From Naegleria gruberi (lineage: Eukaryota): DNA of 64,000 bases. The position numbers were made by a program, and so were the translations under genes. Of the stretch, positions 8,479 through 34,371 are shown one piece after another. Location of the stretch: assembly GCA_000004985.1 (NCBI GenBank), contig GG738869.1. One strand, 5' to 3'. A model generated the notes under the pieces. It was not told the origin of the DNA and did no database searches. It saw only the letters and a list, made by a program, of their open reading frames with translations. The number at the start of each line of letters is the position of its first letter. Position 1 is the first letter of the stretch.

Positions 8479-9072
8479 ATGTTCCTCTCTGATGATATTA
8501 TTATCAACATTTTTAAGCCACTCCTAGAATTCTGTCACTTTATTCAGCTCCGAGCTGTTAATTCTCATCTCTGTCGCTTAATTACCTCAAATTTAGAAGA
8601 AAATAATCAAATCATCAAGAAGGGAACACAACTGATCATTTTGAAAGGCAGTTTTAGAATTAGAGGTGATGTATTACTTCCCTTTACTGAAATTTTACGT
8701 AAACAGGAAATCAAATCTCAACACGTGATTGATGAATTCAACAGGAAGGATTATGGAAGATTATTTAAATTTTCTGATTTGGAATATGCTAGAACAAATA
8801 ATGCCTCTTTTAGAACTGAGTCTTTCCTACCACCAAACAATAGAAATTTAATTACTATCAAACATACTATCTCAGATCCTAATGATGATAGTGCTGTATG
8901 TTGTGCTAATTGTAAGATTGATTTGATTTTATCACCAACACAATCGAAAGCATGGAAAGAGGAAAATGGGTGTGTTGTTGGAATGGTTTCGAATGAATAT
9001 TTTGATTTGGTGTGGCATTATGATTTTCTTACTGGAATACGAGTTTATGTAAATATTTGTACAATCATGTAA
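8479..9072 (+). CDS. Hypothetical F-box-like protein
   Basis: A 197-aa ORF with a verified ATG after an A-run. The N-terminus (LSDDIIINIFKPLLEFCHFIQLRAVNSHLCRLI) resembles an F-box. Confidence 0.4.
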   Translation: MFLSDDIIINIFKPLLEFCHFIQLRAVNSHLCRLITSNLEENNQIIKKGTQLIILKGSFRIRGDVLLPFTEILRKQEIKSQHVIDEFNRKDYGRLFKFSDLEYARTNNASFRTESFLPPNNRNLITIKHTISDPNDDSAVCCANCKIDLILSPTQSKAWKEENGCVVGMVSNEYFDLVWHYDFLTGIRVYVNICTIM

Positions 9073-12300: not shown

Positions 12301-12654
12301 GAAAGCCTGTCTTTAGAAAGAGTGATTATGGAAAATAATGCTTGGATACAACTCTTTGATGATGTCTTGACAACTTCTCCTACTCTTAGCTCAATAAGAA
12401 TTGTTGATTCAATTAATCAAACAACAATAGTTTCTTCCTTTGTTCATGCCTCAAAAATTAGAATTGGTCAATTGGATAAAATTGAACTCAAATTGAAAGG
12501 CTTCGGTGAAAAAGACAAGCTACTGATCAACTCACTGATTGAACAATTAATGTTACACGGTAATGCCAAGACTGTTATTGCTGATTGTAAATTCCTAAAT
12601 CCAAATCAATCAGGTGAAAAAGACAAATCCAAGAAATCTTGCATAGTCATGTAA
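9349..12654 (+). CDS. Large hypothetical protein: low-complexity N-terminus (poly-Q/S/T/N), F-box-like segment, C-terminal leucine-rich repeats
   Basis: A 1101-aa uninterrupted ORF with a verified ATG. It has homopolymer tracts (QQQQQQQ, SSSSS), an F-box-like segment (AFRLMDYCSLFEVSSLSRLNQEWLSF) and C-terminal LRR-like periodicity. Confidence 0.55.
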   Translation: MQNVNIYSSQRKYMNRQLSNNQISSMSQDKTNNTSTTTVGEPALLDSSPHHQQQQLEEELIPSSSSSTTSTTPPLLLSNHNHQNNKKEEQSLVATNYNTPINSSTPLENSSPSSSPSTTDATKSSSSPSNSPAKPKFNSKEKTPQEIYSELALGIAGSNFGYHQQQQQQQVGNNVRHSISIQQTTNRRGIAFELGRDDDDCSEGFNKKDLMDKADKRKSISIVSSLDIQQVNPISLHKKKKKNSPSSKQPSSNHPKGGLFMFFNNPRNSITKRFRASVSGKEMDDDLTKIQQEINDHERRRTLGTTSDEEVDEETKSFYNIIRNGVRRGSSKQLETPVNSGSFMVLDASPRIQSSDVTRTGPIQNVAMSLWTKVDSTIAFRLMDYCSLFEVSSLSRLNQEWLSFVKGYFSNHCDPENLRTCMLLLYFKLQGIFSNLRAEVSAEDRHLKSVYSVLLSHKHLLEQSLTNTSKNRISITTSRELGLGDLFLNTYLNNLFNIIPRVAYYTARKNERKVINFNEIQYSLTVEIFLRDETVVNTLDTYDIERYVQNYSGSFATQLIATSMAYFSVYYLKIENYTPATEPFELTEYTEAGTPEARRVTISGNTPTPNSKAGSFSSLKNLKLESNFEDTIEMFRSPRTPATPSSKNNSFIMDKGEFLIAKGSGTTKKRRESLASETGSVSSSISTPNINFNFIEIIPKDSSELGYLFLLEFFKILSKYIRRLTFSRKPHASERFRMDYFSTMSLSPNCETFSAFMTNEEDEFKKNSKKFKSVCNAIATSEALTCLVMGGKEWNQEDVNILFNSLSRAGDEIKRDNYKIDLILPCLLEISERCTKPKLRPSIFLPPPTSESLVSEINIAEIHESVTSPRIQTDSIQPSFVVSSSGDSQISNDFDEGIVRWPKHLKRVYLTDINENLIFHERWLNGSPEMTSLHFNFSLSSPINFDAICLCSNLRYLHISDCVLGNNKNTALNLINAIKKLDKLESLSLERVIMENNAWIQLFDDVLTTSPTLSSIRIVDSINQTTIVSSFVHASKIRIGQLDKIELKLKGFGEKDKLLINSLIEQLMLHGNAKTVIADCKFLNPNQSGEKDKSKKSCIVM

Positions 12655-12662
12655 AACATTAA

Positions 12663-13307
12663 TCATTTCATATCAATTCTATTACGCTCTTTTAAATAGT
12701 GATTTTCTGACTTAATTTCTCCACATACTGCAAAACAAGTTGCAAGAATAGCTGTTGAAATTGATCCAATTTCTAACATTGCCAACAAAACTTCATTAGG
12801 CAATTGCTCAGTCATCAAAGTATGAGGAAGTGTTTGAACAAATTCCAGTAAGCTTCTGGAATGATGAATTTGGATTTTAGTCTCATCAAAGAGTAATACA
12901 CCAGCGATTGCAATATTAACCACAACATCCAAACCATTTAAAACACTTGCAATGAAAAAAAGCTTACTTGCTTTTTTGGATTTTTCTGATTTGGATCTTT
13001 GATAATCAGCAAGACAACCTTGTAATGCTAAAATACCGCCAATCAAAGGCACTGATAGAATAATTCCTCGAGCAAATCTACTTGGAATTATCATACCCAT
13101 TCTCCACAATATTCTCAATCCAATAATTTCATACATTGATTCTTTCATTCGATGAAGAGGTTGCTTCTTATTATTTTGTTGATCATTTGTAAAATTAATA
13201 TTGGAAACTGAGAATTTTCTTTCTTTCGGAATCGTCCAGATAGTTAGTGCTGGATTTTTCTTTGAGATTAACCTATTAATAGGTATTAGGCATTTGAGTT
13301 TAATCAT
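12663..13307 (-). CDS. Hypothetical multi-pass membrane protein
   Basis: A 214-aa ORF with a verified ATG. There are several hydrophobic helices with G-rich motifs (GIILSVPLIGGILALQG). The 5' end lies only about 47 nt from the stop of the next gene. Confidence 0.45.
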   Translation of the reverse strand: MIKLKCLIPINRLISKKNPALTIWTIPKERKFSVSNINFTNDQQNNKKQPLHRMKESMYEIIGLRILWRMGMIIPSRFARGIILSVPLIGGILALQGCLADYQRSKSEKSKKASKLFFIASVLNGLDVVVNIAIAGVLLFDETKIQIHHSRSLLEFVQTLPHTLMTEQLPNEVLLAMLEIGSISTAILATCFAVCGEIKSENHYLKERNRIDMK

Positions 13308-13354
13308 TTTTTTAATCCAATTAATACACGTTATTACAAATTTACAATTTAAGT

Positions 13355-15019
13355 TTATTTCTTAGCAGGAGCACCAGCAGCTTTTGAAAGAGGAATATCT
13401 TGAGCTGCAGATCTCAATTTTTCTACAGTAAAATCAGTTGTCATTAACTTCCCTGTGTACTTATCTTGAATACCACTCTCTAACAACTCATGCAATTTCT
13501 TTTTTCTTATTAATTCGACTTTCTTTCTCTCGAGTTCCATCTTTCTCTTGAGTAATTCGCCTTCCTCAAGATATTCTCTTCTTTGTTTGTCTTTTTCTTC
13601 TTTAGTGTTATCCATTTGTTGCATCAGCTGTTGTTGAGTCTGAACTCGTCTCTTTTTCTCCTCTTCAGCCTTAAGCTTTTCCAATTCTTCGAGCTTCTTT
13701 TGGTGATCCACAATCCTCGAAAAATCTTCTCTGTCCTCTCTTGCAAGTTCAGCAATCTTATTTTCCTTTTCCATCTTTTGCTTTTGTCTTGTGCCATGAA
13801 GTTCTTGATTCATTTTAACTCTCTTTTCCTCTTCTTGCATTTTCTTTTTTCTGAATTCTCTTTCCAGAGCTTCTTGTGCTCGTTTAGCTCTCAGAGTATC
13901 CATTTCAGAAAGCTTGTCTTGTGCCTTTTCTTGGAGAGCTCTTAGACGAGCAACTTCTCTTTCCTTTTCTGCTCTTAATCGTTCTTGTTGATCCGTTATT
14001 TCTTGTTCTCTTCTTTCCTTTTCTGCAAGGTAGTCAGCAATTTGTCTATCTTCTTCAAGCTCAGCAAGTTTTAATCTTCTCTTCAGAGATATTTGTTCTG
14101 CATTCGCAAGAGCAATTTCTTCCATAAGTAACTTTTCTTGCTTCTTCTTTTCCTCTGCCTCCTTAATATCTTCGGATTTCATCTTTTGCATGTGATACAA
14201 CATTGCATCTTGTTCTTGTCTCTTTAACTCGAGTTCTCTCAGTCTTTCCTTTTCTCTTTCCTTCATTTGTTCTTTAATTACAAGTGATCCATTTCTTCTG
14301 TCTTCTTGTCTCTTTTTTTCTCTTTGTTCATACATTTTAATGGCCTTTAACCTTTCAAGTTCCATCAATTCATCAAGTCGTCTATCTTCCTCTTGTTTCT
14401 CATAGATAATTCTTTGTTTTTCCTCCAATTGCTTGTCTCTAATTGTGACACATTGAGAATACAAGGCCATACTATTCATCCTCTTGACTTCATCAATATT
14501 TTCATCCATTTGAGTGATAGCTTTTTCAAGGAGTTGTAATTGTTTTTCTTCATTTTCTACGTCAAGATCAGATTTTTTCATGTCTCCCTTAGATTTCTTT
14601 TCTCTATCAAGCTGTCTTATACGTTCCTTTCTTTCCATAGCTTCCAATGTTTCTTCCCTTTTTTTTCTTTCAGCTTCCCTTTGTTTTTCAAGAGGAGTTG
14701 CTTTTTCTTTCAGGGTCATAAATTCGGAAGCTGAAATAACGACAGCATCTGGCTGCTTTTTGACAGTTTGTAATGTCCTTTTATCCATTTTCATTGAGTT
14801 ATTTTGTTGTTGTTTTTGTTGTGGTTGGCCCCTTGCTGATGACTTGTTCGTACCAAACAAGTTTTCATCCACAGTAGCCGTATCAGCAACTTTTCTATAG
14901 GTTGATCTTGCGTGAGATCCTGCACTAGATATCGAAGCATTAGATGATGGCTAATATAATAATATCAATTAAAATCAAATATCAGGTTAGAATACTTTGA
15001 GGGTAAGGCAACGTACCAT
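13355..15019 (-). CDS. CFAP45: Cilia- and flagella-associated protein 45 (CFAP45/CCDC19)-like coiled-coil protein, 2 exons: 15017..15019 (ATG only) and 13355..14950
   Basis: E/K/R-rich coiled coil with a CFAP45-like segment (EKEREVARLRALQEKAQD...LRAKRAQEA). The ORF-track start at 14872 is GTG and the frame continues upstream to a TAG. The sequence aaaaaaaATG|GTACGT...TATTAG (66-nt intron, 14951..15016, with a CTAAC branch) supplies an ATG-only first exon in frame. Confidence 0.7.
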
Positions 15020-15214: not shown

Positions 15215-16875
15215 TTATTGTTCCATTTCTTCATCCTCAGGATCTTCTGAAAGATTAGATGGTTTAAAGATTGAATAGCCGTCAAGACTTGTTGTAATAA
15301 GCACATTTTGGAATTTTGGATGCCAGTGCACTTCCTTAATGTCAACTTGACCCATGTGTTCGAATAACAATTGTGGTGGGATTTCATTTCCGATTTCTTT
15401 TTCAATTTCTTCTTGTTCGGCATCTCTTTCGAGTGAGAGATCCCAAATTGTCACCTTATCAGAATCAGAAGCAGCCAATAACGTTGATTCAATTGGATTC
15501 CATTCTATTGATGTAATAGAATTCTTGTGATAAATAAATTGGCCAACTGGTTTCATAGGACTGCTATCAGAACATTGTCTGACGTCCCAAATACGAATAA
15601 CACCATCATCGTCACCACTTGCAATAAAGTAACTTGTGAGAGGATTCCAAGAAATAACGTTAACATCTGCCTTTTCACTAGCTTCAAAACTGAGAGCATG
15701 CTTTCTATTCTTTTTTCTTGTATCCCAGAATTTAATAGTTCTATCGCATGAACATGATGCAAACACACTGTCTTCACTTGGTGAGAATTGAAGATCCTCA
15801 ACACTTCCTGTATGTCCAACAAATGGTTTATCATAAATTCTCTTCCAAGTATGAACTCCACTATTTGTTTGCATATCCATAACGTTAATTTCACCATTAC
15901 AATCACCAGTAGCAAGTCTACCTTCCACACACTTCGACCAGTCCATAGCAAAACCTTCAGTAGTATGGAAATCGAAAGTTTGAATTGCCTTCTTACTCTT
16001 TGTAATAGATTTTAAGGAACTGGCCATATTTTCTTGTCTTAAAACTTGTGACATTTGTGTCAAGTCATAAATGTGAACCTTAGAGTCCTCACACCAAAAA
16101 CCAACAATATTTCTATTTTGTGGCATTGCTCTTACTCTATTAACATTACCAGTGATTGGAATAGTTTGGTATTCAAGTGATGGTTCATCATCCAAATTTT
16201 CATTATCATCATCTTCATCTTCAACGTCACTTTCATCTGAATCGTAACGTGTTTTGTACATATCGTAAGCTTTAATCATGTAACAATTCTTTTGAGGAAC
16301 AGTTTCATCAGTTTGCACACCCACAACAAAATAACATGACAATGGATAATTCATAGTATCGAGTGGTTGTGAAACAATATCAAAACTCAAAGCAGGCCAT
16401 TCATTTCTGATTTTGTAATTAATTTCGTAGGCCTTATTTTGAAAAGTTAATTCGAATTCTCCATCATTGTAATTCTCTCCAGGACGATAAATATCGGCTT
16501 TGGAATTTATACCTTCTCTATACTTTTCGGCTTCTTCCTCCTCTTCAATATATTGTTTTTCACTGTTTTGTACTTTCAAATTTAATTCATCCATCTTTTG
16601 ACGAAGTTCGGTTTCATCTCCTTCAAATTCATATTCACCTTCATCTTCATCAACGTAGTCTTCCGAATTTTCATCGTATTCATCTTCATATGGATCGCCT
16701 CTACACAAAATTTAATCATCATCATCTATGAAACTAAAAAAACCTACGCTGCATATTCGGCTCTATCTTCATGGTCTGATTCTTCATCAGATGAGTCAAG
16801 ATGTCTGACCACTCTCGATTCATTCTTACTTCCAGAAAAAGTGGCTACTTTACTTCTCTTCTTTGCGCCTGGCAT
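15215..16875 (-). CDS. GRWD1: Glutamate-rich WD-repeat protein GRWD1/Rrb1, 2 exons: 16748..16875 and 15215..16700
   Basis: WD40 propeller with an acidic N-terminus, matching GRWD1. The ORF-track start at 16708 is TTG with an in-frame TAA upstream. An upstream exon (aaaaATGCCAGGCGCAAAG...GCAGC|GTAGGT) is joined by a 47-nt intron (16701..16747), phase 2, giving ...AEYAAGDPYEDEY.... Confidence 0.8.
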
Positions 16876-17004
16876 TTTTTATTGTCTTGTTGACTTCAAC
16901 AATTTTTTTCAAACTTTCATCAACAAGGCTTGTTGGAAAAGTGAAGTAAAATGTTGAACAAGAATAAAAATTTAAAAAAATTGAAAACACTTTAAATTCA
17001 AAAA

Positions 17005-18012
17005 ATGGTGACTACCAATAACAACAAGGAAACATCGGTCGCTTCAACAGAGAAGAAGCCAGTTGCTGTGACTACCAACAAGATTAGACAAAAGTTAAAG
17101 CAAATGAACAAACAAACAAAATCAACGGTTACAAATAGTGATAGTACCAATTCTAAATTCCACAACAAACAAAGAACTTTGATTTTATCTTCACGAGGTA
17201 TTCATGCTAAACATAGACATTTATTGAAGGATCTTCGTACCTTGTTACCTCACACTAAAACCGAAAGTAAATTCTCTAAAGAAGGAATAGATGAAGGAGA
17301 TTTGGTTAAAAAACTTCACAGACTTCAAAAGATTGACCACATTGCTGCTGCTTTGAAATGTCCAAATATTTTGTACTTTGAAGTTGATAAGGAATCAGCA
17401 GATACAGAATTGTTTTTATGGATGTCAAAGACTTCAACTGGACCTTCTATGAGATTTAAAGTTGAAAATATCAGTACTATGAATGAATTGAATCTTATCG
17501 GAAATTGTTTGAAATATTCAAGACCATTATTACATTTCGACAAAACATTTGACAATATTGAAGGCGAAGATAAGCTTACTCATCTCCCATTGATTAAGGA
17601 ATTATTAACACAAACTTTCTCTACACCACTTAATCATCCAAAATCAAAACCATTCTTTGATCACATGTTTGCTTTCTATTATTTGGATGGAAGAGTTTGG
17701 TTCAGAAATTATCAAATTGTTACAAAACAATCAAGCCAAGGAGTTGCATTGACTGGTTCCCAAAAACATGAATATTCTCTTGTTGAAATTGGACCTAGAT
17801 TTGTTCTCAAGTTGACTAAGATTCTCAATGGTTCTTTCGATGGTAGAGTTATTTTCAATAGTGATTCACACTTTGTTTCAAAGGCTGAAGTTCAAAGATT
17901 GGAAAGCATTAAACTTGACCTCGACAAGCAAAAAAAGACTGAAAAACACAGAAAGTACTTAGAATTGAGAAAGCCAGCTGATGCTGATGAAGTGAGTTCT
18001 GTTTTCAATTAA
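17005..18012 (+). CDS. Brix-domain ribosome biogenesis protein (Brx1/Ssf1/Ppan-like)
   Basis: 335-aa ORF with a verified ATG. Brix-domain motifs are present (LILSSRGIHAKHRHLLKDL..., FEVDKE...). There is a possible GTGAGT donor near the 3' end, so the C-terminus is uncertain. Confidence 0.75.
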   Translation: MVTTNNNKETSVASTEKKPVAVTTNKIRQKLKQMNKQTKSTVTNSDSTNSKFHNKQRTLILSSRGIHAKHRHLLKDLRTLLPHTKTESKFSKEGIDEGDLVKKLHRLQKIDHIAAALKCPNILYFEVDKESADTELFLWMSKTSTGPSMRFKVENISTMNELNLIGNCLKYSRPLLHFDKTFDNIEGEDKLTHLPLIKELLTQTFSTPLNHPKSKPFFDHMFAFYYLDGRVWFRNYQIVTKQSSQGVALTGSQKHEYSLVEIGPRFVLKLTKILNGSFDGRVIFNSDSHFVSKAEVQRLESIKLDLDKQKKTEKHRKYLELRKPADADEVSSVFN

Positions 18013-19629
18013 AAGTTTTTTCAAAAAACTGCTGTACTGATTTTTTTCAATATTCCCTAAAGCTCCTCACCTAAAGCAATAATAAGGACTTTGTGAGCGG
18101 ATTTTGAATGATATTGGAGCAAAATTTGTCGTGCCCAACTCAATTTTCCATCACTACAAGATATTAATCACCGCGTTTCATTTTGCTTTTTGTAATAAAA
18201 GTTGTAAAGTTATGACGTTGGATAGCTTTATAGAAAAAAATACCATCACCAACTGACAAACCAAAAATTATTACCTCCCAACAATAATTAGTAACATCAC
18301 ATCCTACCTCGTCTCTTAGGTTGAGTTCTTTTATAAGAAAGTTCTTTTCATGTAGAGGTGTTTTATAATTATTCCAAAATTGAAGTAATTGTTTTACTAC
18401 GAGGTAAACTCACAACAAATTCTCAAGGAGATGATGTTGTGTTTTGGGATGTAATGTTTCTTATTATGTCAGAAAACATCTAGTAAGGAATGATTTATTT
18501 AGAAGAAGAACAACAACAATATTTAGAAGATATAAAACCATCACTGTGGGCTGATGATTTTCAGCAATAATTTAGAGAGACCAAACAAAAAATGATTTAA
18601 TATTGCAACATACAAACACACCACTTCAGCACCAACAGCAAGTAATCGTCTATGGAAAACTTCATCAAAGAGGGTCTCCTTTTTTTCATCACTAAATTCT
18701 ATTGATGAAGCATCATGACTATATCCGAGGATTGTGAAACAACAACCAACAGCAGGCTTTTACGATGATTCCGCACATTTGAATGAAGTATTAGTTTAGA
18801 TCAACTGGTACTGAAAAGGAGAAAAAGTATGCTGCTTGTTTGGCTCCTACCTCATCACTTGCTGTTGCTTTTTGTTATTTACTCCTGAATGCGTTGCTAT
18901 CTTATATATGATTGTGATGTGTTTAATTAATAAGTTGGAGTGGGAGCAGCAACAGGGTAATAAATGTAAGTACCTACGATTTATTTGAAATTTTACCTTA
19001 ATTCCATTTCATAATTGACACCATGGAACATTTAAGGTGAAATCTTCACCAAAATAATAATTTGAAATAGTCAGTTTTGGAAAATGATGTCAGAGAATTT
19101 GATATTTATGAGTGTAATCTTTTCACATTTCAATTTGGTTGGTGCTATACATTCCATCATCAAGACTTAAGGTCCTGCCATTAATTAGAAACTGTGATGC
19201 AAGAAATAGTAACTGTTGTTGATGGAACTGTTTTAGAAGATTTAGCAAGTATTAATGTTGTCTACACAACAGCAACTGTTGCCATCTAAATCCTTACAAC
19301 TCTGAAGGTGAATTCATTTTGAAATATGATCCTCCAAGGGAAACTATGTTCATTCTCACTGATTAAAAGCTGATTTTACCGTTTGATTTGAGTGTAGACA
19401 TTTACAATAGATGATTCTCTTACACATACAGAGGTGAAAGAGATGCACTGATGATGTTCTTTCAACTCTTCAGTTTTGACTCAAGTCAAATTGTCTATTC
19501 AGTGGAAGGTATGGATGAGTTATCTATATAGTAGACACTTATAACTTTAGAATTAGAAAGCTATCAATTACCAATAAGACTATCATATTTATTACTTATC
19601 GGTGGACAAGAAGAAGGAAAACTTTGGAA

Positions 19630-20084
19630 ATGAATATTACTGATACTCTTGCTCAACCAACAGGACTTGCTTTTTTCAGAATTCTGAACATGCTTCAATT
19701 AACACCATTCCATATACATTGCCTACAAGTTTTACATCAAGATTGTCAATGATCTTACAATAATTGCAAGATCTAGTGCTCCACCAACTCCAGGTCTGAG
19801 TTAGCAGCTCCTGTTCCTACTCTCAATACAACTATTGCCCCAACAAGTATTGCAGTTGGTGAGGATGGAAAAGTAACACACCCTCAAAATGTTAACACCT
19901 GCTCCAACCTGAACAATTTTTGTCGTGGCTAATACTGGATAATATCGGTCCTATTGAGGATGATGGCTTGGCTATTAGTTCTTCATTTATTACTGTTTCC
20001 TCTGAGGAGATTATTCTTGCTGATTGTATGAACAATAGAATTAGAAAGATTTGTGGAGAGGGAGTCATTACTACCAGTGGCTAA
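19630..20084 (+). pseudogene. Decayed NHL-repeat gene fragment, paralogous to the receptor kinase at 30615
   Basis: Translation of 19941..20084 gives NIGPIEDDGLAISSSFITVSSEEIILADCMNNRIRKICGEGVITTSG*. This matches the NHL unit of the 31097-exon (IYFADSGNNRIRKIVNGTINTVAG). Upstream frames are broken by stops and no intact ORF remains. Confidence 0.35.
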
Positions 20085-21329
20085 TGCCTATGACTAAGAG
20101 AGATGTTTGAAAGTAATTGACCTAACCTTTCATTTTGCGTATTGTATGGAATGAAATGTCTCTAGTCAAAGAAGTGTTTTTGAGAATTGTGAATAGTGCT
20201 TCAGTGATCGTTTGGGCTCTTGTTGATGGTAAGGAAATGAGTAGAGATATCAAAAAGATTGCATATGATTTTGCCTTCTTTACTATTGATGTTTCACAAG
20301 TTTGCCAAGGAATTGTAGTCATTCAAGTTATGTTAATATTCGTAAAAAAATTGAGAAAATGACTCTTTGCCACCTTGCTGATTTTCGAAGTGGTTTCTCA
20401 GCACCAAACTTTCACATCATCATCTAAACATCAATTTAGTAGTAATATAGTAATTTTTATTGGAGTATTTTCTTCATTATTTTGGAATTTATCTTCATGA
20501 TGAAAAATCACAAGTTGATGAATCATCAGAACATTATTGTTGTTTTCCATCAATATAATAATTTTATTTGTGGAAATTAATATATAGTAATGAAATTACA
20601 CTAAAATCTTCATCACCGTTGGATTTAATGGAAAAGTTGGAAAACTATTAATGTGGCATTGTTGGAAATGGACAATAGTATGATATAAAACTTTGTTTGA
20701 TCACTTTTCATCAAGTATTGATAGAGATAGGTACATGTGAATTTTGAAAACTAACATGAACATTACTCCATGTGTACTTCAACCAACTTGAATACAATCT
20801 TATAGAACTACTAGTACTATTTAAATCACGAATAAACACCATATTCATCATCAAATATTCGTCATCTTGTCGATTACGGAATTTCATTCCACCAGTGTTG
20901 ATTCGGGCCCAACAACAAAATATTAACAATAAAACAATTACCAATACTATTGTTTACATGTTTTATGTTAAATGATCGTAACGATCATCAAGATCATCCT
21001 GTTTTTATTGCATTTCTCATGATAATCAGAAATGTCACAGAGAGTGCCACATATCCATTCTACTCTCAATAAATAATAGTTCCTTTTTACACATGTGCAA
21101 CTTTGCTTATAAACATGATGAATTCATATATTAAAGACTCCAAAGGCTAGTATAATCCTCAATGTGATGTCTAATAATACCATTACAACTTAAAGATAAT
21201 TATCTTATAATTTCATTGAATATGAATTGAATTTGTAAATTGACATAAAACAGTGGTTTATTGTAATTTGGTTTAAAAATAGCTTTCTAAAGCACCTTGT
21301 TGTATCTTGTTGTGACATTTACTAAAAAA

Positions 21330-22385
21330 ATGGCAAAAGCACCAGCACAAATTGTTATGGAGAACAAATTGCGGAAATCATTAACATTAAAACAATTCAT
21401 AGAATTATCCAAGTCTACAAGAAAAAGGAGATTAGATAATCTTCGTAAGAAATTCTTTAATTCAAATTTATTTAAATATTCTTGGAGTAAATGGCGAGAT
21501 GCTATTATCGGAACAAACAATTCAATCCAATATTTATTAAAACAAAGAAAAAACATAAAAAATAATTTATCAACATCTACAATTGATACAATAATTCAAC
21601 AATTAAAAGAGGAAAGGAACAAATCTACAAAAAAAGAATCCAAAAAAGATTTTGAAAAAAAAATTAATAATTTATTACAATCTAAAAATTTATTCAAAAT
21701 CAATGTTAATTTGATATTATGTAGTAATTTGGCTAATACTATTCAACTAATGTTTTTAAGAAATATACTTCCCGAAAATACCACTACTGAGGTAACCAAT
21801 ATATTGGATAAAATTAACCAAAGAAGATCAAAGGAAAATTATTATATAGGAAGTTGGGGAAAGAGTTCTTCTTTTCTATTTAAAACTAATGACACTATTT
21901 TTAATGAATTATCTTCTCAATTTATTAAAATTATTAATTTATTAAAAAATTATGTTTTGGAAATATTGAAATTTGGAAATAACAAGATGAGGAAATTCTT
22001 AGAAAAATACAATAGTAGTGATTTTTTATCAATTTATCCGACAGTGTGTTTTAATTTTTTGGATAAATCTGTAGATGAAAATAGAATTCTACATATTCAT
22101 CCGGATAAGGAAGACACTGGAACTAGTCTAATTTTTTACTTTGGAAAGTTTAAAGGTGGAGCAATCTCATTTCCTGAATTAAATTTTAAGCTTATGGTTC
22201 AATCAGCAGATGTTTTATTGTTTGATGGTAAGAATAATTTACATGCTGTTGAATCACTTCATGGTAAAGATGATGTTAGATATTCCGTTGTATTCTTTGC
22301 TCATAAAGCAGACTTGGGTAAAACTAGTTATCCCATGAATAGAGGAGAAGTTATGAAAGGTATTAAGAATAAAATCAATAATTAA
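21330..22385 (+). CDS. Tet/JBP-family 2OG-Fe(II) dioxygenase, Naegleria NgTet1-like 5-methylcytosine dioxygenase
   Basis: The ORF-track start at 21297 is TTG; the first ATG follows an A-run at 21330. The C-terminal half carries the catalytic signature HIHPDKED (HxD) ... LIFYFGKF ... VLLFDGKNNLHAVE (distal His) ... VRYSVVFFAHK (Arg). As I recall it, this aligns well with NgTet1 (HKD...SLFYFGNF...VLFFKGNEYKHVV...WRIGLVYFAHK). The gene is K/N/I-rich and Leu is mostly TTA. Confidence 0.7.
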   Translation: MAKAPAQIVMENKLRKSLTLKQFIELSKSTRKRRLDNLRKKFFNSNLFKYSWSKWRDAIIGTNNSIQYLLKQRKNIKNNLSTSTIDTIIQQLKEERNKSTKKESKKDFEKKINNLLQSKNLFKINVNLILCSNLANTIQLMFLRNILPENTTTEVTNILDKINQRRSKENYYIGSWGKSSSFLFKTNDTIFNELSSQFIKIINLLKNYVLEILKFGNNKMRKFLEKYNSSDFLSIYPTVCFNFLDKSVDENRILHIHPDKEDTGTSLIFYFGKFKGGAISFPELNFKLMVQSADVLLFDGKNNLHAVESLHGKDDVRYSVVFFAHKADLGKTSYPMNRGEVMKGIKNKINN

Positions 22386-24134
22386 ATTTTAAATAATTAT
22401 TTAAATAATTTTTATAAATAATTTAATTGTATTAAAAAAATGTCTCCACACTTTAACCTCGAATTTTATTCGAGAAGCACAACAGTAATAGATGAAAGCA
22501 CTCTCGGTGGGCTTGATTTGATAATAACACACTTATACATCCTCTTGTAGGAGTATAATTAGTGTTGTTGTTGTGAGTTGAGGACGTTATTTTAATTCCT
22601 TTTCCCTTCTTCCAAAGTTTCCTGTTCAAACTTTGTTGCTTCCGTAAATCATATTATCAACAGGAAAGATCATTTAACTGCGAGCATCGTTGTTGGATAC
22701 AAACTATGCATTGACAATTCTTTTAATTATCTTGAATGTTTGGTAATTGATGGCAATGTTCATATAATCAACTCTCACCAAAGAAGAATTCTAAAATATA
22801 TCTAATGATCAGGCTGTTGATTTTCAACAACATACAGGTATTCGGAGCTATTGTAAAATAATTGTTTTACTTTGATGATTCAAATGGTTTTCAACAACTA
22901 ACATAATTCTTATCCATCTTGCAAAAAAAGAGGATACCATGACAGCAATCAACTTATATCAATATTGAAAAATCATTAGGAAATTATTCAGAAGTAGCAT
23001 GCATTGTAATTGTTGCGTTCAAAACATTTCTCAACATTAAATTCTTTCTCCACAATCAAACCCTGCTCAGCAACAATCAGAAGAGGAGCCATCTTTTAAT
23101 CTAACTTGCCATCTATGTTGAAGGAATGTACATTTAGAAATCAGTGATGTTCACCCTGAATGTGATGGATCTTTTTCTGGCTACTTGTATTGGTTGCTCC
23201 AGTAATTGCACATATGGAGGCTCTTTTAATGTTTCCAATAACCAAACTATGCTGGTGATTCCACTCCCAACCAAAACCCTATCAAAAAGAATTCTTCTAT
23301 ACAACTAGTATGAGTCATAGAGCTGTTGTCTTTCGTCCACTTTTAATAATAATATATGGTATGCTTTTGTTCAGGCTGTAATGTTTCGAGTGCAATTCAA
23401 CACCAGTGTTTTCATTCCAACCATGATTGGATCATATCTCCAAAGAGGACACTGGGTATTATTACTATTTAAAGTTGGCTACTAATAGTGAAATCTACTT
23501 GTTCGATCCAATGTTGGATGCCAAGTTCACTAGTGCTGAGCTGGCTATTGATATTTCAGATATCCTTTTTGTTTGTTGTCACTACCACCCTATTATTCAA
23601 CTTCTAGGTTTACGTTTCAAGAATCATGGGTTTATTTGGTTTAAGATGTTATGTTTCAGTATTCACGTAAATATGATGCAAGGAGGACACTTATTGCTGC
23701 TGTGGTGGTAATAGTAGCATTACCTTAGGTGTTGTAGTGTATACTACTTCATCATCTATTAATACTTATTCTCCAATTACTCAAACAAAGACAATTTCAA
23801 TCAACATTCACTATGTCAGTGCTTAATTATTCCAAGTTGTACTAAAACAACATCACTAACAAGGTGCTAAACAACTATGCTTTCCATTTCAACGCAGAGG
23901 CATATGTCTTGCGTTTGGGGCAGAGATTTAGTGCTTGAATAGTGGTTAAACAACAATGGATGGGCATTTTGGCAACTGGTTTTCAGTAGCTTCACATTCA
24001 TGTTGTTTGACTTAACAAACACTTTGGCTGCAATCTATTCACTCTTTATCCATCATTTATTCATCATTTACACCAATACTGTATTGTTTACATTTTGTAT
24101 GCTAGCTGGTTATTATTATTAATCATTAAAAAAA

Positions 24135-26864
24135 ATGGGAGTAGCGACACTTTTTACCAAAGCTGACGTTTTAAATTCCCACAACATCAAAAAGCAAAAA
24201 GAAACCAAACGTCCTGCCTTTGAAGGTGATAATGATAGATCGATTGTGGCGGCAATTAAAAAAACAAAACAACAAGCATCCAACGACTTTGAGTATTACA
24301 AGACATACAAAGAAACAGATTTCACTAATGAACAGAATTTTAGTTCAATAATTTATCAGATAATGCTAGTTCTATTGCCCTATTTTGTTTTTAAAATAAC
24401 CTCAGGATTATTAGATTTTGAATCAATATTATTATACTTTCTAGTCTCCACAAAAAAAGGCAAAGATTTATTAGCACAAGCCAATCTATATAGTACTGAG
24501 GGTGTTTCTTGGTGTGAAGCAATAGTATTTAAAGCAATTTGTAATGCAGATATAAGTATAGGGAGTTATGGTAGATTTATTGGTTGTTTAGAAGAATCTA
24601 GTAAATCAGACACATCCAGAAATAAGAAAAAGGCAAGACATTTTTTACCATCACTCTCTACAATAACAAAATATTCAAGTAGTTTACATCAAGTATTAGA
24701 TATCAATCATGCTGCAGATAGCGAAGGACTTTATTGGAGAATATTTTGTTCATCCATAGAACTTAATGACAGGACATTCAGATATGCAACGCTTCAAAAT
24801 GCAGAATTGTTTTTATTCTCATTTATTCGCTACCATGAAATGATCATAGGAGAATATATCTTCTTTGTAAAGATAAGATGTACTGTTGATGGTTCACCTT
24901 TAGAGGGAGCCTGTACTGCGTATGATATTGTATTAATTCATCCCAAGATAGATCCATTTTGTGCTCGTAATTATATTTCTGTTATTATTGCCGAGCCTAA
25001 AGAGGAAATAGCGTTCAAATTAAACATCTGGGATTTCTCTCGCCAGTTAATGCGTATCACACAGTTGAAATACTCTGTACCTAATGAAGAAACAAGAATT
25101 ATTCCTGTAAAATTTATTACCAACCCTGATAAGGGCGCCTTTAACAAAATTATAGATGTGGAAAAGGTAACGCCAATTTGTGATCCTATTTTTAATTTGG
25201 TAAATCTTTATTGCCTATTATCAATGATTTTCAATACAGATAATTCCTTAATACTACCTCTAATTCCAACAATAAGAGGAGATTGTAATAATGATAGCAA
25301 CAAAGCAAAAGGACAAGCAAATCTAGCAAAGGTTATGGAAATTAAAAAGATTATGCCTGAAACGTTACCTTATTACCACAACATTCCAACAAAATCCCAA
25401 ATATTTACTGATTTTCAATTAGATGAAGATTCTATTTTTTTAATTGAAAAATTTATCATTAAGAAACCTCAAACAGATTATTTATGTTGTATGTTTTGTT
25501 ATTTAACTAAACAAACAAAAAGAATAGCATTGAAGTATCCTGATTTGTGTACATGGAAATGGTACAGATCAAACGAAAGCTCAAGTAATGCTTTAGGCTG
25601 GCCTTTTAAAAGTTTTTCATGGTGTCTTTCGCATGATATAAGAGCCTGTGGTCAGAATCTTATTGAAGAAGAGGTGGGACAAATTGAAGAAGATAGACAA
25701 TATTTTGCCAAATTATTCAGTTCTGAATCTCCAATTGCCTCTTTGAAATGTGGTTCTAAAAAGCTAATTAATGAACAACTAGATGCCAACCTTGTTTCTG
25801 AATTTGAGTTTTGTCAATGGAGTGTATTTGAATTAAAGGTGAAAGAAGAAAAAAAGAAAAACAAAACAGGAACAGAGCTACGAACTAGTTCAGTTAAACT
25901 AATCTATGATCAGATTTTGTTTAAACAAATAGACAAAATTATAATGACAATAGATGTTTGGTATCCTCATTGGCTCACATATCGAGAAAACAAACAATTA
26001 CAGGTTTGTCAATCCCTTAACAATAATCAATCATTTGAAGATTGTACAAATGAAGAACACTCCAAGCGAGGAACATACAAACCAAAAAACTATGAACATA
26101 TATGGAAAGCTCTTCAAAAAACATACATTACTCTTCGCCAACCAAAATCTAAATGGTTAGAATGGAAGAAAACTGGATATCAAGAGCCATTGCTAATATT
26201 TAAGAATTTAAATAAGGTTTGGATAAAAGATATTTTAGGAAGAATATCAGAATATTTACACATTCATCAACATGCAGATATTGTGTTCGATGAAGTAGAA
26301 GAATCATTCGTAACAACATCAAACATTGGATCTGAATCTAAAAATTCTTTAAGAAGGAAGCGTCATGTTTCATTTGGAGTTAATGGTGGTTTAAGACATC
26401 CTTGTGATGATTCTTTATATTATGACAGCAAAAGAATTCTTAATGAATTGAAGATCCTTGCTGAGACTCCTAATATTATTGCAAGACAAGATGAGATCAA
26501 AAGAAAACAAGTTTCCGAAAAAGAAAAACTCACACAACCAAAAAAGAAAAGAAAATCTGAAACTACTACACAACCCAATCCAATAAGCTCAACCAATTCC
26601 TCAATTAATTATATCAATCCTTCCCTATTACAACCTCTACTTCCAGATAATTTTAATTCAATTACATTACACAATCAACACTCCTTCTCACCTCCTATAT
26701 ATATTCATCCTCTTCAACTCCAACCTCCACTAACTAACAATTTAACATTTTCTCAATTCAATCCTTCTCAAAATTCCAATAACCAACCAACATCTCCTTA
26801 CCAACCATCATCTCCATTTTCATTCTTTTCATCCTCCAATCCATCACCAAACTCCTTTTTATAA
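24135..26864 (+). CDS. Large hypothetical protein (909 aa) next to the Tet-like gene, with a Ser/Asn/Pro/Gln-rich C-terminal tail
   Basis: Uninterrupted ORF with a verified ATG after an A-run. I see no recognisable domain, but there are Cys-rich patches (DYLCCMFCYL, CTWKWY). Codon usage is AT-skewed (Leu=TTA, Ile=ATA), like the Tet gene and unlike the housekeeping genes in the window. Confidence 0.5.
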   Translation: MGVATLFTKADVLNSHNIKKQKETKRPAFEGDNDRSIVAAIKKTKQQASNDFEYYKTYKETDFTNEQNFSSIIYQIMLVLLPYFVFKITSGLLDFESILLYFLVSTKKGKDLLAQANLYSTEGVSWCEAIVFKAICNADISIGSYGRFIGCLEESSKSDTSRNKKKARHFLPSLSTITKYSSSLHQVLDINHAADSEGLYWRIFCSSIELNDRTFRYATLQNAELFLFSFIRYHEMIIGEYIFFVKIRCTVDGSPLEGACTAYDIVLIHPKIDPFCARNYISVIIAEPKEEIAFKLNIWDFSRQLMRITQLKYSVPNEETRIIPVKFITNPDKGAFNKIIDVEKVTPICDPIFNLVNLYCLLSMIFNTDNSLILPLIPTIRGDCNNDSNKAKGQANLAKVMEIKKIMPETLPYYHNIPTKSQIFTDFQLDEDSIFLIEKFIIKKPQTDYLCCMFCYLTKQTKRIALKYPDLCTWKWYRSNESSSNALGWPFKSFSWCLSHDIRACGQNLIEEEVGQIEEDRQYFAKLFSSESPIASLKCGSKKLINEQLDANLVSEFEFCQWSVFELKVKEEKKKNKTGTELRTSSVKLIYDQILFKQIDKIIMTIDVWYPHWLTYRENKQLQVCQSLNNNQSFEDCTNEEHSKRGTYKPKNYEHIWKALQKTYITLRQPKSKWLEWKKTGYQEPLLIFKNLNKVWIKDILGRISEYLHIHQHADIVFDEVEESFVTTSNIGSESKNSLRRKRHVSFGVNGGLRHPCDDSLYYDSKRILNELKILAETPNIIARQDEIKRKQVSEKEKLTQPKKKRKSETTTQPNPISSTNSSINYINPSLLQPLLPDNFNSITLHNQHSFSPPIYIHPLQLQPPLTNNLTFSQFNPSQNSNNQPTSPYQPSSPFSFFSSSNPSPNSFL

Positions 26865-26897
26865 AATAAAAGGAATAATTTAAATTATAATAATTGT

Positions 26898-27659
26898 TTA
26901 ATATTTATTCCATTTAACAGATTCATCAAGCATAGAGCAGAAATAATCAAATTCAATTCTAATCATCTTCTCTTCAGGTTTGTAAATTAATTTAAATTGA
27001 TTAATTCCAAATTTCCATAAAATACCATCATGCTCCCATTTAAATGCATACCACTTATCACTAAACAAAGGAGGAAGGCTATAATTTCCAGCAAACAACC
27101 AATGATATGTTATCTTTGGAACTATTCTTCCTTCCCTTGCAATGCCACCCTCAATCAACATCTCTTCTTTTAAAATGCTATATGGTTTTGCCTTTTGTAT
27201 TTGATAATCAAAGAATAGCTTTGCTTCGTGATCATCTGTTACAGAAACATAATGTTGATGATGCCACTTGACATTATGGGTTGTATCTGGCTGAGCATTT
27301 CTAATAACTACCTCCTCAATAGTTCTCGGAAGTACCTTTAGGTATCTTGTTGCATAATATTCATCAGAATATTTTTCATCCATTATCTCACGCAGTGTTA
27401 TTGTTGGTAGGGAAGTATCAAAAAAGTATTCAAGTTGTTGTCTTTTCTCTAATGGTATGTTCACTTTCTTACTCTCTTCACTGCCTTCAAGAATGTTTGT
27501 TACTTGGCGTTTAGCTGTTTTCAAATCATCAACCTTCTCTACAACAAAACGTATTTTGTTTGTATTGTTATTCTTCTCCAACGATTTATTCATAGCTACC
27601 CTCTTACTTTTGCTCAACCTGTATACTTCAAACGTTACTTCTGTTTTGTTGGTGACCAT
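26898..27659 (-). CDS. Hypothetical protein (253 aa)
   Basis: Single ORF with a verified ATG. I recognise no family. The W/Y/F-rich C-terminal half looks like a beta-sandwich. Confidence 0.4.
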   Translation of the reverse strand: MVTNKTEVTFEVYRLSKSKRVAMNKSLEKNNNTNKIRFVVEKVDDLKTAKRQVTNILEGSEESKKVNIPLEKRQQLEYFFDTSLPTITLREIMDEKYSDEYYATRYLKVLPRTIEEVVIRNAQPDTTHNVKWHHQHYVSVTDDHEAKLFFDYQIQKAKPYSILKEEMLIEGGIAREGRIVPKITYHWLFAGNYSLPPLFSDKWYAFKWEHDGILWKFGINQFKLIYKPEEKMIRIEFDYFCSMLDESVKWNKY

Positions 27660-28045
27660 AGAAAATACTTGTTTGTTTTGTTTTGATTTTGTTGTTGCTC
27701 ATGTTGTTGTTGATATGTGGTGTTGTTGATGTTATTGTATTTTTTTTTACGTGAGTTTACAAATTGAAAAACAAGCAAGAATGAAACGCGGTGAAATTAC
27801 GATCAGGATTTGAAAAAATATCAAAAAAGACGTTACATAACAAACAAACCTCGTAACCGATCATCAACACTTGTACAACTTGACTCTTAACAAGTATTGT
27901 TGTTGTGGGAAGATTTTAATCTTCGTAACAAACTTCATCATCATCCGACTTTTTTAAAAACTCTCTTATCATCATCAACAAGAAGTGATTTTGTACTAGT
28001 ATTGTATTTTGGTAGTTTAATTATAATACAAGAAGATTAACCATC

Positions 28046-30614: not shown

Positions 30615-33600
30615 ATGTCACAACATCAAACAACACTACAACTACTCATTTCCCTGTTTTTATTTTTGATTGTTGTTCAATGCACAGCATCAACAATGGA
30701 ATACAATACTAGTCTATCATTTGGTATTGATACACTGGTTGGCTATGATCCGAATAATGGAAATAATCTTCCTTCAATATATGCCAATTTGAATCCCAAT
30801 AATTTGACATTTGGCACGAATACAAAGATAATGTTCATGTATGATGGTGTTAGGAATGCCATCATGAAACTTGATCTGAAAACAAATCTGATTTCGAAAT
30901 TAATTGATTTAGAATATAGAGCGCTCTCAATATTAGAAACTAGAAATGGAATTTTATTTACAGATGCTCAAGGAAGGAATATTAAAATGTTGGCCAATGA
31001 TTCAATTTCTATTGTGGCAGGAACATTAACAACAGGATATTCAGGTTTGTTGATCTTGGGATGATTTTATTTTAAACTAATATTTGATATTAAAAGGGGA
31101 TGGAATTGCAAACGAAACGAAACTAAACTCTCCAAAGGGATTAATTGAGGATGGTAATGGAAATATTTATTTCATCGATTACTATAATTATAGATTGAGG
31201 AAATTATCAGGTAATATGATTTCAACAATAGCTGGTGATGGAAAGAATGAAAATAATGGAGATGGAGGATCAGCTCTAAAGGCCAACTTGAAAAATCCTT
31301 CCAATCTGGCACTAATTGACCACAACTTATACATTTTATGTGATACAGCAATAAGGAGAATTGATTTAATCACAAGTAAGATTTACAGTTTCTCAGTTGA
31401 AAGTCCATTCAAATTTACTGGAATTTTCCAAGCCAATGGAACAATTTTTGTTCACTCTGCTACTGCAATTGGTAAAATTCAATCCAATCAGAAGATTTCT
31501 ATCATTTCCGGATCAGCATCTGTATCGGGTCCTTCTGTAAATAATATTCCAGCAATTGATGCCTTATTCAAACAAATAAGTTCAATTGGGGTACTTTCGT
31601 CTGAGTTAGGGGATGTTATTTATGTTTATGATTCTTCAAATAATGATATTAGGGTTATTAATGAGACTCGTTTTATTAATCTGTTGGCTGGTGTTAAATC
31701 TTTGAAAGCAAATGTGGATTTATCGGCTCCTTATTTTATTTCTAATGATCCAATTGGACTTGCTGAGCTGATTAATGGTGATTTAGCCTTTTCGCATTCA
31801 GGTGGAATTGCCAAATATTCCAATGGATTGATAACAAACATAGTCGAATCTTCTAGCCCAATATTAGGAATTGCTTTCTATGAGAAAGAGGATGAGCTCT
31901 ATTATGTGGATTCGAACTCAAAAATTAAAAAGCTCAAAGATGGAGAAACGATACACGTAGCAGGAGCATCGAATGGACAAAATGCAGACAACATTCCAGC
32001 ATCAAAAGCATTACTTTCCTCTCCGTATGGAATTTCAATAGATCAAAGCAATGGAGACATTTATTTCACTGAACAATCAGGAAATAGAATACGAAAGATT
32101 TCTCAAGGAATTTTAACAACAGTTTGTGGAAATGGTCAAGCAGGAGATTCTGGAGATAAAGGGGAGTCCATTAAGGCACTAGTGAATAATCCAAGTGGAA
32201 TTCAGTTTACACAAAATGGAGAGATTTATTTCGCTGATTCAGGTAATAATCGTATTCGAAAGATTGTGAACGGTACCATTAACACAGTTGCTGGGGCAAA
32301 TGTTTGTAATGCTAAGGAAGGATCAAAAATGGCCACTGAAACGGTGTTGAGAAATCCAACTTTCGTTTATGTCTATCCGAATGGTGATTTTCTCATAACA
32401 GAAACAAACTCTCATTTGGTGAGAAGAGTTTCAAAAGGATTTATTTACACTATTGCAGGTACTGGACTATCTGGAGAGGGACCTGATTCAGTTCTGGCTC
32501 TTCAATCAGCTTTAACAAGTCCCAAGTCAATCATTCATTCATTTTCAATGAAACGAGTTGTACTAGTTGATAAGACCAATAGAGTGAGAATCTTAACTCC
32601 TTATTGTGAAGAGGGATATGTATTAGATGTTTATGGAGCATTCTGCATTCCTTTCTGTTTTGGAATTCTTGCAAATGATACAAATACTTGCTCTGGAAAG
32701 GGAGAATGTTCTTCATTCAACAGATGTAATTGTGCAGCATCCTATGGAGGAGAACAGTGTAATATTTCTAAATGTTTTGGAGTATTGGCAACTGACTCAA
32801 AGACATGCAGTGGAAGAGGAAAATGTTTGGATGGAATTTGTGATTGTGGAGGTAAATTCATTGGAACTAATTGTGAAATTCCCATTTGCTATGGAAAAGC
32901 TTCAAACGAGAGTGAAGTTTGTGGCGCTCATGGAAAATGTTCTAATTGGAATACGTGCGAATGTTTGGATAAGTATTCAGGCAGTTCGTGTCAATATCCT
33001 ATTTGTTTCGGCATTGCTTCAACCAGCCCTACTGTTTGCAGTGGAAGAGGAGTATGTACAGGACCAGATTCTTGTAATTGTCAATCTGGATCTTCTGGTA
33101 CTATTTGTGAAGTATCGAGAGAAGAAATTGACAAACAGAATCGAGAGAGAATAATCATAATAATTAGCTCAGTTTCAGGCTCCTTATTCTTATTATTCTG
33201 CTGTATTATTTGGACAATATCGGTATTCATATTCACCAATAGAAAGCTCAACCAACGACACAATGCAGAGCTAGATATGGAAAAGAAACTTCTTGAATTT
33301 GAGTTCAATGATTCACAATCTTCAGTCAGGGAATCAGTCTACCTCTTTTCACAACACCAGAAACCATACTTGATACCAATAGAAGATATTACATTTGTTA
33401 AAAAGATTGGAATTGGAGGATTTTCAAATGTTTATTTGGGAAAGTGGAACCAGTCGTTTGTGGCTGTCAAATCTGTTGAAAATCAAGACGATAGAGCTGA
33501 TGATGTATTTGAAAAAGAAGCACAAACTTTGTGTGCCCTCAAACATCCAAATATTATCACTTTTTATGGAATTTCATTTTCAGAGAGCAGAAAATTGCTG

Positions 33601-34371
33601 ATTGTGGAATATTTTGAAAAGGGAAGTTTAGATAAGTACATTGAAGCACTCACTACAAGGAAGATTAATTGCTCTCTAGAGAAAAAGATCAATTACTTGT
33701 TGCATATTGCTAATGGAATGGCCTATCTTCACTCGTACAAACCTAATCCTATTGTTCACAGAGATTTGAAACCAGCCAATGTTTTAATGTCAGAGAATGG
33801 AATTCTCAAGATATGTGATTTTGGATTGAGTAGAAGTTTGAATTACGAAACCAAGTCAGCCATGACATCCAATATTGGAAGTTTCTATTATTTGTCTCCA
33901 GGTAAGTTGTTTTTGGGTAGTTTATAATAATTTGATCTAAATCTGAAAGAAATGTTAAATGGAAGCAATCAAAAGAAATATGCAACTGCTTTGGATGTGT
34001 TCAGTTTTTCAATCATTGCTTGGGAATTACTTTTTGAAGAGGGAAATCCATACGATTATTCCAACAGAACAAAAGTATTTTATACAATGAATGAGGAAAA
34101 ACAGCTTCGATATGAAAAACTCAGTCCATTTAATGTTCCAACTCTTGTTTCTCAAGGCCTGAGACCACCAATTCCATTCGATTCGTCCGAAAGTTGTAAA
34201 GATTGGTGTAGCTTATTCGCAACCTCTGAAAAAGAACATTATCTCATTATTTTACAATTAACTGATTTGATTAAGCGTTGTTGGGATGAAAGACCCGAAC
34301 AGAGACCTTCATTTATAGAGATTGTGAACATATTATCTCAATTCGAAACTTATTTCTCACATGATTTGTAA
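30615..34371 (+). CDS. Receptor-type protein kinase: signal peptide, NHL beta-propeller repeats, tenascin-type EGF repeats, TM helix, TKL-like kinase; 3 exons: 30615..31044, 31097..33901, 33950..34371
   Basis: Three ORFs are joined by two introns: 31045..31096 (GTTTGT...AAAAG, 52 nt, phase 1, restoring GYSG|DGIANETKLNSP) and 33902..33949 (GTAAGT...GAAAG, 48 nt, phase 1, restoring the kinase YYLSP|E|MLNG, i.e. the APE motif). The protein also has a signal peptide, EGF-like C-x-C repeats, a hydrophobic TM segment and the kinase HRDLKPANV...DFG motifs. Confidence 0.75.

Follow-up and report, generated by a model that had tools for sequence, protein, structure and literature searches.

A 909-amino-acid (aa) open reading frame (ORF) in a stretch of 64,000 nucleotides from Naegleria gruberi (contig GG738869.1; the whole stretch is called the window here) is probably the transposase of a 9.6-kb DNA transposon that carries a Tet gene. 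The transposon appears to be RAG1/Transib-like and of the type found in the CMCT clade, which includes CACTA/EnSpm, Mirage, Chapaev, Transib and RAG1. The element in the window holds three intact genes, for a Tet/JBP dioxygenase, the transposase and an accessory protein named ORF253. Motifs, termini and structure speak for its membership of the CMCT clade, while no significant sequence similarity to an established member was found. The main features of the element are as follows.

18169-27793, no strand: candidate whole transposon of 9.6 kb, from a CAC to a GTG terminus, with a 15-bp inverted repeat around three genes
18168-18194, plus strand: left terminal inverted repeat (TIR), TCACCGCGTTTCATT, exact over 15 bp and extending to about 25 bp with one indel
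18234-18242, plus strand: subterminal A-box AAAAAAATA, 66 nt from the left terminus, the sole plus-strand copy in the window
21330-22385, plus strand: Tet/JBP-like dioxygenase gene, the putative cargo, which matches NgTet1 structures and has the HxD (HPD) motif and the distal His
24135-26864, plus strand: 909-aa ORF, putative CMCT-type (RAG1/Transib-like) DDE transposase, based on the ORF listing, codon usage, family, motifs and models
26898-27659, minus strand: ORF253, accessory gene, with relatives beside transposase-like genes in N. lovaniensis and Willaertia
27738-27746, minus strand: subterminal A-box AAAAAAATA, the minus-strand copy, 48 nt from the right terminus
27767-27794, minus strand: right TIR, the complement of TCACCGCGTTTCATT, ending at 27794

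A divergent family with the motif order of CMCT transposases

The 909-aa protein has no match in Pfam, NCBIfam or the PDB sequences, and an earlier sequence-only reading of this DNA was right that standard libraries offer no family for it. That reading also took the protein to be orphan-like, which is not the case, as relatives exist in at least three other heterolobosean genomes. An exhaustive phmmer search against 1.84 billion representatives gave seven relatives. Word-indexed protein homology searches missed them and came back empty with the 909-aa protein and with the family alignment alike, so that the exhaustive HMMER search was the only one to detect the family. A cluster look-up named the relatives as belonging to Naegleria fowleri, N. 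lovaniensis and Willaertia magna (three genes), all of them heterolobosean, and the rest are short metagenome fragments. Two scans of metagenomes and one of viral contigs gave no relatives. The members share 22-31% identity, and the family is, as judged from its sequences, small, very divergent and seen only in Heterolobosea.

The family alignment has only 23 invariant columns with at least five sequences present. Seven of these are D252, D332, C452, C455, C497, H500 and E734, which fall into the following motifs.

24888-24890, plus strand: D252 (VDGSP), first of the two predicted catalytic Asp, where a beta strand ends, invariant in 5/5 sequences
25128-25130, plus strand: D332 (NPDKG), predicted second catalytic Asp, right after a beta strand, invariant in 5/5
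25488-25499, plus strand: C452xxC455, the C(2)C motif, invariant in 5/5 sequences
25623-25634, plus strand: C497xxH500, a [C/D]xxH motif, invariant in 6/6 sequences
26259-26273, plus strand: H709x3H713, the H(3-4)H motif, kept in 6/7 sequences
26334-26336, plus strand: E734 (GSESK), predicted catalytic Glu in a predicted helix, invariant where covered

The motifs run along the protein in the order D, D, CxxC, CxxH, Hx(3-4)H, E, with E734 lying 21 residues past the second His (H713). The CMCT/RAG1 transposases have D, D, C(2)C, H(3-4)H, E in this order as their published signature (PMC12730594). The invariant D252, D332 and E734 are predicted to be the catalytic residues of a DDE transposase, and they take up an RNase H-like arrangement in our low-confidence models. 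C452xxC455, Hx(3-4)H and the placement of E734 likewise agree with the clade. The two His are spaced as Hx3H in the window protein and as Hx4H in the other members, and they are missing only in a decayed Willaertia copy (P0005).

Clusters of Cys and His had been noticed earlier as a possible zinc-binding module, and the strings quoted for them, YLCCMFCYLTKQTK, CTWKWY and HIHQH, are all found in the translation. Two of them contain C452xxC455 and H709x3H713 and match the CMCT/RAG1 zinc motifs; the Cys of CTWKWY is not conserved. Because the motif order matches the published signature, we suggest that these clusters are the zinc-site motifs of the CMCT transposase clade and not a classical zinc finger. 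No recognizable zinc-finger domain model is found in the window protein. The N. lovaniensis relative is the only family member with a Pfam match, having two fungal-type Zn2Cys6 domains N-terminal to the conserved core.

The sequence libraries gave no significant similarity to the CMCT clade, whether by Pfam at E values up to 10, by a profile search of the PDB or by hhalign against RAG1. In Pfam, no transposase matched the family members (RAG1, Transposase_21, Plavaka and others), and the KDZ transposase and CxC domain models matched none of the eight. The PDB profile search with the family gave no transposase. Using hhalign, we aligned the family with mouse RAG1, whose query sequence was checked against the PDB, and with a small RAG1 alignment; the probabilities were 0.3-0.6%, which is not significant. 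The Hx4H...SE block was set on H937/H942/E962 of RAG1 at a probability below 1%, which is no evidence by itself.

Predicted structures

We predicted the structures of the window protein and of its Willaertia homologue P0009 with AlphaFold2, using the shallow family alignment as input. Both models are poor, with pLDDT (predicted local distance difference test) scores of 47 and 43, respectively. In both models D252 and D332, or their equivalents, are located at strand ends of a beta-beta-beta-alpha-beta unit and the Glu is in a helix; the model strand E185-192 corresponds to residues 244-251 of the 909-aa protein. The strand order and the Glu helix would be those of an RNase H-like arrangement.

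The RAG1-like motif match had been predicted from sequence ahead of the structure searches. A Foldseek search with a predicted model, the check that the sequence-only reading had proposed, gave no significant match, but RAG1 and HzTransib took ranks 2, 4 and 6 among the RNase H-like folds. For the Willaertia model, BbRAG1L was ranked first (8.4), RAG1 second (8.0), HzTransib fourth (7.8) and the P-element transposase 14th. The few RAG1-family chains among 48,164 come out top with two independent models, and the models point to RAG1, RAG1L and HzTransib as the nearest structures.

Inverted termini around the same genes in two genera

The candidate element fills a gene-poor gap between a Brix gene (stop at 18012) and a lipase gene (start at 28046). 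We found its termini by direct comparison of the two intergenic regions that are bound to hold any boundary; an earlier repeat scan of 17.5-28.5 kb had given low-complexity inverted repeats only. The exact 15-bp inverted repeat TCACCGCGTTTCATT (18168 and 27794) encloses the Tet gene, the 909-aa gene and ORF253. Its 14-mer CACCGCGTTTCATT occurs in the window only at 18169 on the plus strand and at 27793 on the minus strand, where 0.17 matches at up to 2 mismatches would be expected. An inverted repeat of 15 bp, of whatever sequence, linked the two regions in only 7 of 2000 shuffles. The element begins with CACCGCGTTTCATT and ends with AATGAAACGCGGTG, and hence has the 5'-CA..TG-3' ends of the clade.

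A second element was found in Willaertia, on the contig L003. The homologue P0009 (10001-12331) has an ORF253-like gene before it and a Tet-like gene (15884-16957, E value 2e-17) 3.5 kb after it, and all three lie between perfect inverted copies of CACGGGGTGGT at 9004 and 17037. The reverse complement of this 11-mer occurs once in L003, at 17027-17037, 80 bp past the Tet stop, and a downstream copy arose by chance in 1 of 20,000 shuffles. On these grounds L003 9004-17037 is an 8-kb element with CAC...GTG inverted termini. Its ends, CACGGGGTGGT...ACCACCCCGTG, also have the 5'-CA..TG-3' form. Tet thus lies between the termini in both genera, at 9004 and 17037 in L003 and within 18169-27793 in the window, as in a TET+ transposon. 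The earlier suggestion of a mobile-element link to the Tet gene is supported by the shared termini in Willaertia and by the exact repeat around the gene cluster in the window.

We also found a right-truncated copy with a broken transposase frame on a separate Willaertia contig (L004). It has 5.25 kb in common with L003 at 98.6-99.2% identity, with the same first base, unrelated flanks and two sharp edges, and the common left edge opens with CACGGGGTGGT. A common sharp start within unrelated flanks is expected of a multi-copy class II element. The common block was also considered as a Helitron, with its right edge at CTAA by a small hairpin. We rejected this reading as a Rep/helicase gene is lacking, the 5' end does not begin with TC and the actual right terminus turned out to lie 2.8 kb further on.

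A further member of this kind is L006, a 957-bp contig of an ENA metagenome (ERR1078381 k127_390420), which aligns with window positions 23862-26924 in four collinear pieces of 85-96% identity. It lacks 1.9 kb of the transposase ORF (most of the gene) and two smaller stretches. Its sequence suggests a non-autonomous derivative of the window element, formed by deletion, in a closely related amoeba.

The 9-mer AAAAAAATA is located 35-66 nt inward at 4/4 termini of the window and Willaertia elements. In L003 it is found at 9056-9064 (53 nt inward) and 16995-17003 (35 nt inward); the whole window has six occurrences on both strands. It could be a nonamer-like binding site for the transposase. The two offsets differ by exactly 18 nt within each element, with opposite polarity relative to the ORF253 end, and for this polarity we rejected the equal difference as a sign of a 12/23-like rule.

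Some other features of the Willaertia loci were observed. An ORF of 286 aa, with no counterpart in the window, lies between the transposase and the Tet gene (L003 13097-13957, also in L004) and could be a fourth gene of the element or a captured host sequence. Just beyond the element, L003 18543-21763 holds two genes with SprT-like domains, one of them also with Chromo and HMG-box domains, which may belong to a separate element, mobile or associated with chromatin. The third, decayed Willaertia copy (L005) has a long array of short A-rich repeats upstream, at about 5800-8200; AAAAAAATA occurs 62 times in this locus, which has many blastn matches of 70-100 bp to L003 1100-2100.

The genes of the window element

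The window is AT-rich (~33% GC), gene-dense and intron-poor, with a Naegleria-type look. The 909-aa ORF, listed there exactly as first reported, is real by several measures. The chance of 909 open codons is ~3e-24 from the stop-trinucleotide frequency of the window, and codon usage, scored as a likelihood with 20 of the window's other long ORFs as the training set, favours its frame in all the 100-codon blocks. The closest in-frame stop on the 5' side is at 24120, five codons before the ATG, and seven A directly precede the ATG, as expected from the A-rich start context described before. The low-complexity tail is also present and is not conserved across the family.

26571-26861, plus strand: S/P/N/Q-rich low-complexity tail of the 909-aa ORF, residues 813-909, 54% S/P/N, with KKKRK (26538-26552) just before it

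The ORF does stand beside a Tet/JBP gene, as the sequence-only reading observed. The identification of the neighbour is based on phmmer matches to the NgTet1 structures (E values 3e-21 to 5cg8 and 4.8e-21 to 4lt5); the match to the Pfam model Tet_JBP (E value 3.4e-5, 23.6 bits) is under the curated cut-off of 34.9 bits. The mechanically called Tet ORF (21297-22385) opens with TTG; a 351-aa protein (MAKAPAQ...) probably starts at 21330, where the first ATG lies. The 909-aa ORF is downstream of this gene but not immediately so, the gap from the Tet stop at 22385 being 1,749 bp. A codon bias shared by the two genes holds in that the GC content at third codon positions is low in both (0.22 in the 909-aa ORF and 0.19 in Tet), but the effect is modest with other genes at 0.28.

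ORF253 has no informative match in Pfam, NCBIfam or the PDB. In N. lovaniensis (L001 10001-10729, E value 5e-11) and in Willaertia (L003 9165-9959 and L004, E value 2e-14) its relatives immediately precede the transposase-like gene, and by this conserved position it appears to be a partner of the transposase-like gene. The ATG of ORF253 is 134 bp inside the right terminus of the window element, and for its relative in Willaertia the start is 161 bp inward from the left end. In N. lovaniensis the annotated protein XP_044542210 (1159 aa) joins the ORF253-like and the transposase-like ORFs via a predicted intron. The L001 DNA has two complete ORFs (10001-10729 and 10781-13765) with 51 bp between them, so this homologue's annotated union with an ORF253-like domain is probably an artefact of the gene model.

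Proposed mechanism

We infer from these features how the element may move at present. The helical N-terminal part of the 909-aa protein would bind the terminal repeats, i.e. the CAC-led terminus and the subterminal A-box, and the RNase H-like core would cut with D252, D332 and E734. The zinc site, predicted to consist of C452/C455 and H709/H713, would hold together the long insertion between D332 and E734, as in RAG1. After cutting at its ends, the element would be reinserted elsewhere, with ORF253 in a presumably accessory role. The Tet cargo could oxidise 5-methylcytosine (5mC), or thymine, on the element, which would let it escape the methylation-based silencing of repeats by the host.

Placement of the element and alternative explanations

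Several observations weigh against a transposon of this kind. The target-site duplications are matches of 2 bp at best, i.e. TT/TT in Willaertia and AA/AA in the window, from one complete copy each. The Willaertia flanks read ..CTATT before and TTTCA.. after the element, with TT/TT as the sole match, and the window flanks read ..ATTAA and AATTA.., where AA/AA match only if the terminus is TCAC. The exact parts of the repeats are short (11 bp in Willaertia and 15 bp in the window), and one complete TIR-bounded copy was seen per genome, with the window as the only part of the source genome covered. For N. lovaniensis, N. fowleri and Willaertia L005, no TIRs were detected around the copies and no Tet gene lies within 10 kb, so that the proposed neighbourhood of homologues and Tet genes holds for L003 and not for these three. 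D332 and E734 are 402 aa apart, compared with 254 aa in RAG1. Finally, the gene order counted from the ORF253 end is the same in the window and L003 elements but the transposase and the Tet gene are on the opposite strand. Given this kept order and changed strand, we suggest that the two are old relatives, rearranged relative to each other.

Strict Transib elements have a 5-bp target-site duplication and a TIR starting with CACGGTG. The Willaertia terminus CACGGGGTGG resembles this heptamer, the window has CACCGCG, and neither complete copy has a 5-bp duplication. CMCT elements mostly have 5'-CA..TG-3' termini, with target duplications of 2-5 bp (PMC12730594). The element is best placed as a very divergent CMCT variant; we do not file it as a member of Transib or CACTA because no significant similarity was found and the target-site duplications are 2-bp matches at best.

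The strongest alternative, which we consider unlikely, is that the 909-aa ORF is a domesticated or fossil host gene derived from a CMCT element, immobile now and acting e.g. as a DNA-binding regulator, with the Tet gene left over from an ancient insertion. The low copy number in all the genomes seen would fit this, and so would the copies without TIRs and Tet in N. lovaniensis, N. fowleri and Willaertia L005, the two Zn2Cys6 DNA-binding domains gained by the N. lovaniensis protein, and the ~5 kb of the window element that are free of ORFs and apparently decayed. The codon changes between the window and L006 (8 non-synonymous and 6 synonymous) suggest some constraint. However, the window copy retains every catalytic and zinc residue, 15 bp of its inverted termini still match exactly, and L006 is an internally deleted derivative. 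In Willaertia, two contigs hold copies of 98.6% identity with a sharp common end, which argues for a recent duplication by transposition. The loci are also not syntenic between the genomes, the neighbours of the family members being unrelated in every one of them.

Two other explanations seem far less probable. One is a DDE transposase of another superfamily (hAT, P, Kolobok or KDZ) outside the CMCT/Transib-RAG1 clade, which we regard as very unlikely. Zisupton elements make 8-bp duplications. Transposase genes of the KDZ group (Kyakuja-Dileera-Zisupton) are linked to TET/JBP genes and presumed to move together with them, according to Iyer et al. 2014 as cited in PMC12730594, and a transposase and a TET/JBP gene are physically linked in our element as well. 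KDZ elements are the classic partners of Tet genes, but our element has no Pfam KDZ match, and the RAG1-like structural match is absent from KDZ transposases. The other, slightly more remote still, is that the protein is no transposase but a lineage-specific zinc-binding protein, and that the motif order, the structural matches and the inverted repeats are coincidental. It could appeal to the lack of any statistically significant sequence link to a transposase, to the low confidence of the models and to Foldseek matches that are not significant. It would have to explain why the invariant residues agree with the complete D-D-C2C-CxxH-HxH-E set, why RAG1-family chains, few as they are among 48,164, come first with two independent models, why inverted CAC termini surround the same three gene types in two genera and why a near-identical Willaertia copy has the same sharp end. 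We hence keep the Tet-carrying CMCT-type transposon as the probable explanation.

Comparison with known elements

Compared with Transib, RAG1 and the RAG1-like proteins (ProtoRAG), the 909-aa protein shows no similarity that sequence or profile comparison could detect. From the second Asp to the Glu, its insertion of 402 aa exceeds the ~254 aa of RAG1/Transib, and the first two Asp are 80 aa apart, compared with 108. There is no 5-bp target-site duplication at the window and L003 copies and no RAG2-like partner, a 250-aa accessory protein being encoded instead. The element also carries a Tet gene, and its host is a heterolobosean amoeba and not an animal.

The fungal TET+ CMCT transposons belong to EnSpm, ESTA and Plavaka and were found in rusts, mushrooms and truffles (Kojima 2025, PMC12730594). 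ESTA was linked to RAG1 by HHpred only (PMC12730594). Our element resembles them in the CA..TG termini, the C(2)C and H(3-4)H motifs and the TET/JBP cargo, a likeness that refers to their published description and not to a comparison of proteins. Some of the fungal elements also encode a third protein of unknown function, as ORF253 is here. Unlike them, our element has a host in Discoba, a Tet of the NgTet1 type and an apparently very low copy number.

The cargo Tet (21330-22385), a putative dioxygenase, is a paralogue-level relative of the Naegleria Tet-like dioxygenase NgTet1 (PDB 4lt5 and 5cg8; E value ~1e-21) with the HxD...H iron site. The genome of N. gruberi has little 5mC, which is concentrated on repeats and transposons, and 5-hydroxymethylcytosine (5hmC) is not detectable (Sarre et al., PMC12344493). 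The in vivo role of the Naegleria Tet-like enzymes was left open (PMC12344493). A local, element-directed role of Tet, if true, would fit both the sparse repeat-bound 5mC and the undetectable 5hmC.

TET/JBP-carrying transposons have been characterised only in fungi (PMC12730594). In the literature we searched, with Repbase outside its scope, no Tet-carrying transposon and no RAG1/Transib-like transposase was reported in Naegleria or other Heterolobosea. We speculate, tentatively, that the elements form an undescribed lineage of superfamily level in Heterolobosea, RAG1/Transib-like, with ends that combine a CAC 'heptamer' and an A-rich box with a spacer between them and with the first Tet cargo outside fungi, and that they seeded the eight Naegleria Tet paralogues including NgTet1. 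Such seeding would explain the missing genome-wide 5hmC, as the enzymes would act on their own elements. With a Tet-carrying element in a heterolobosean amoeba, the DNA transposons of distant eukaryotes would have repeatedly recruited a demethylating enzyme. The RAG1/Transib-related clade would reach Discoba in a form too divergent for sequence libraries, and a transposase of this kind would be relevant to the deep history of the RAG1 fold.

ORF-free stretches and an incomplete gene model

Within the otherwise gene-packed window, the element has two ORF-free stretches of 3.1 kb and 1.75 kb, together ~5 kb, with no detectable similarity to the loci compared.

18195-21296, no strand: interior stretch without any ORF of at least 80 aa, containing a GC dip to 0.275, the lowest of the window
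22386-24134, no strand: spacer of 1.75 kb between Tet and the 909-aa ORF, with no ORF above 94 aa

The first stretch shows no similarity to the rest of the window or to the relative loci compared, and it is probably decayed or non-coding DNA of the element. A short frame in it (19920-20084) resembles an NHL-repeat fragment (..NNRIRKI..), like the ORF at 31084-33927; tblastx gave no significant match. The 3' part of the second stretch (23862-24030) is kept in the deletion derivative L006.

The gene model of the N. fowleri relative, XP_044557530 (L002 9764-11621, 468 aa), is truncated. The similarity of L002 to the Willaertia protein extends upstream of the model; on the downstream side the frame changes at about 11465-11480, and the similarity then runs on through the Glu/NGG block. 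The frame change would be either an unannotated intron or a sign of a frameshifted pseudogene.

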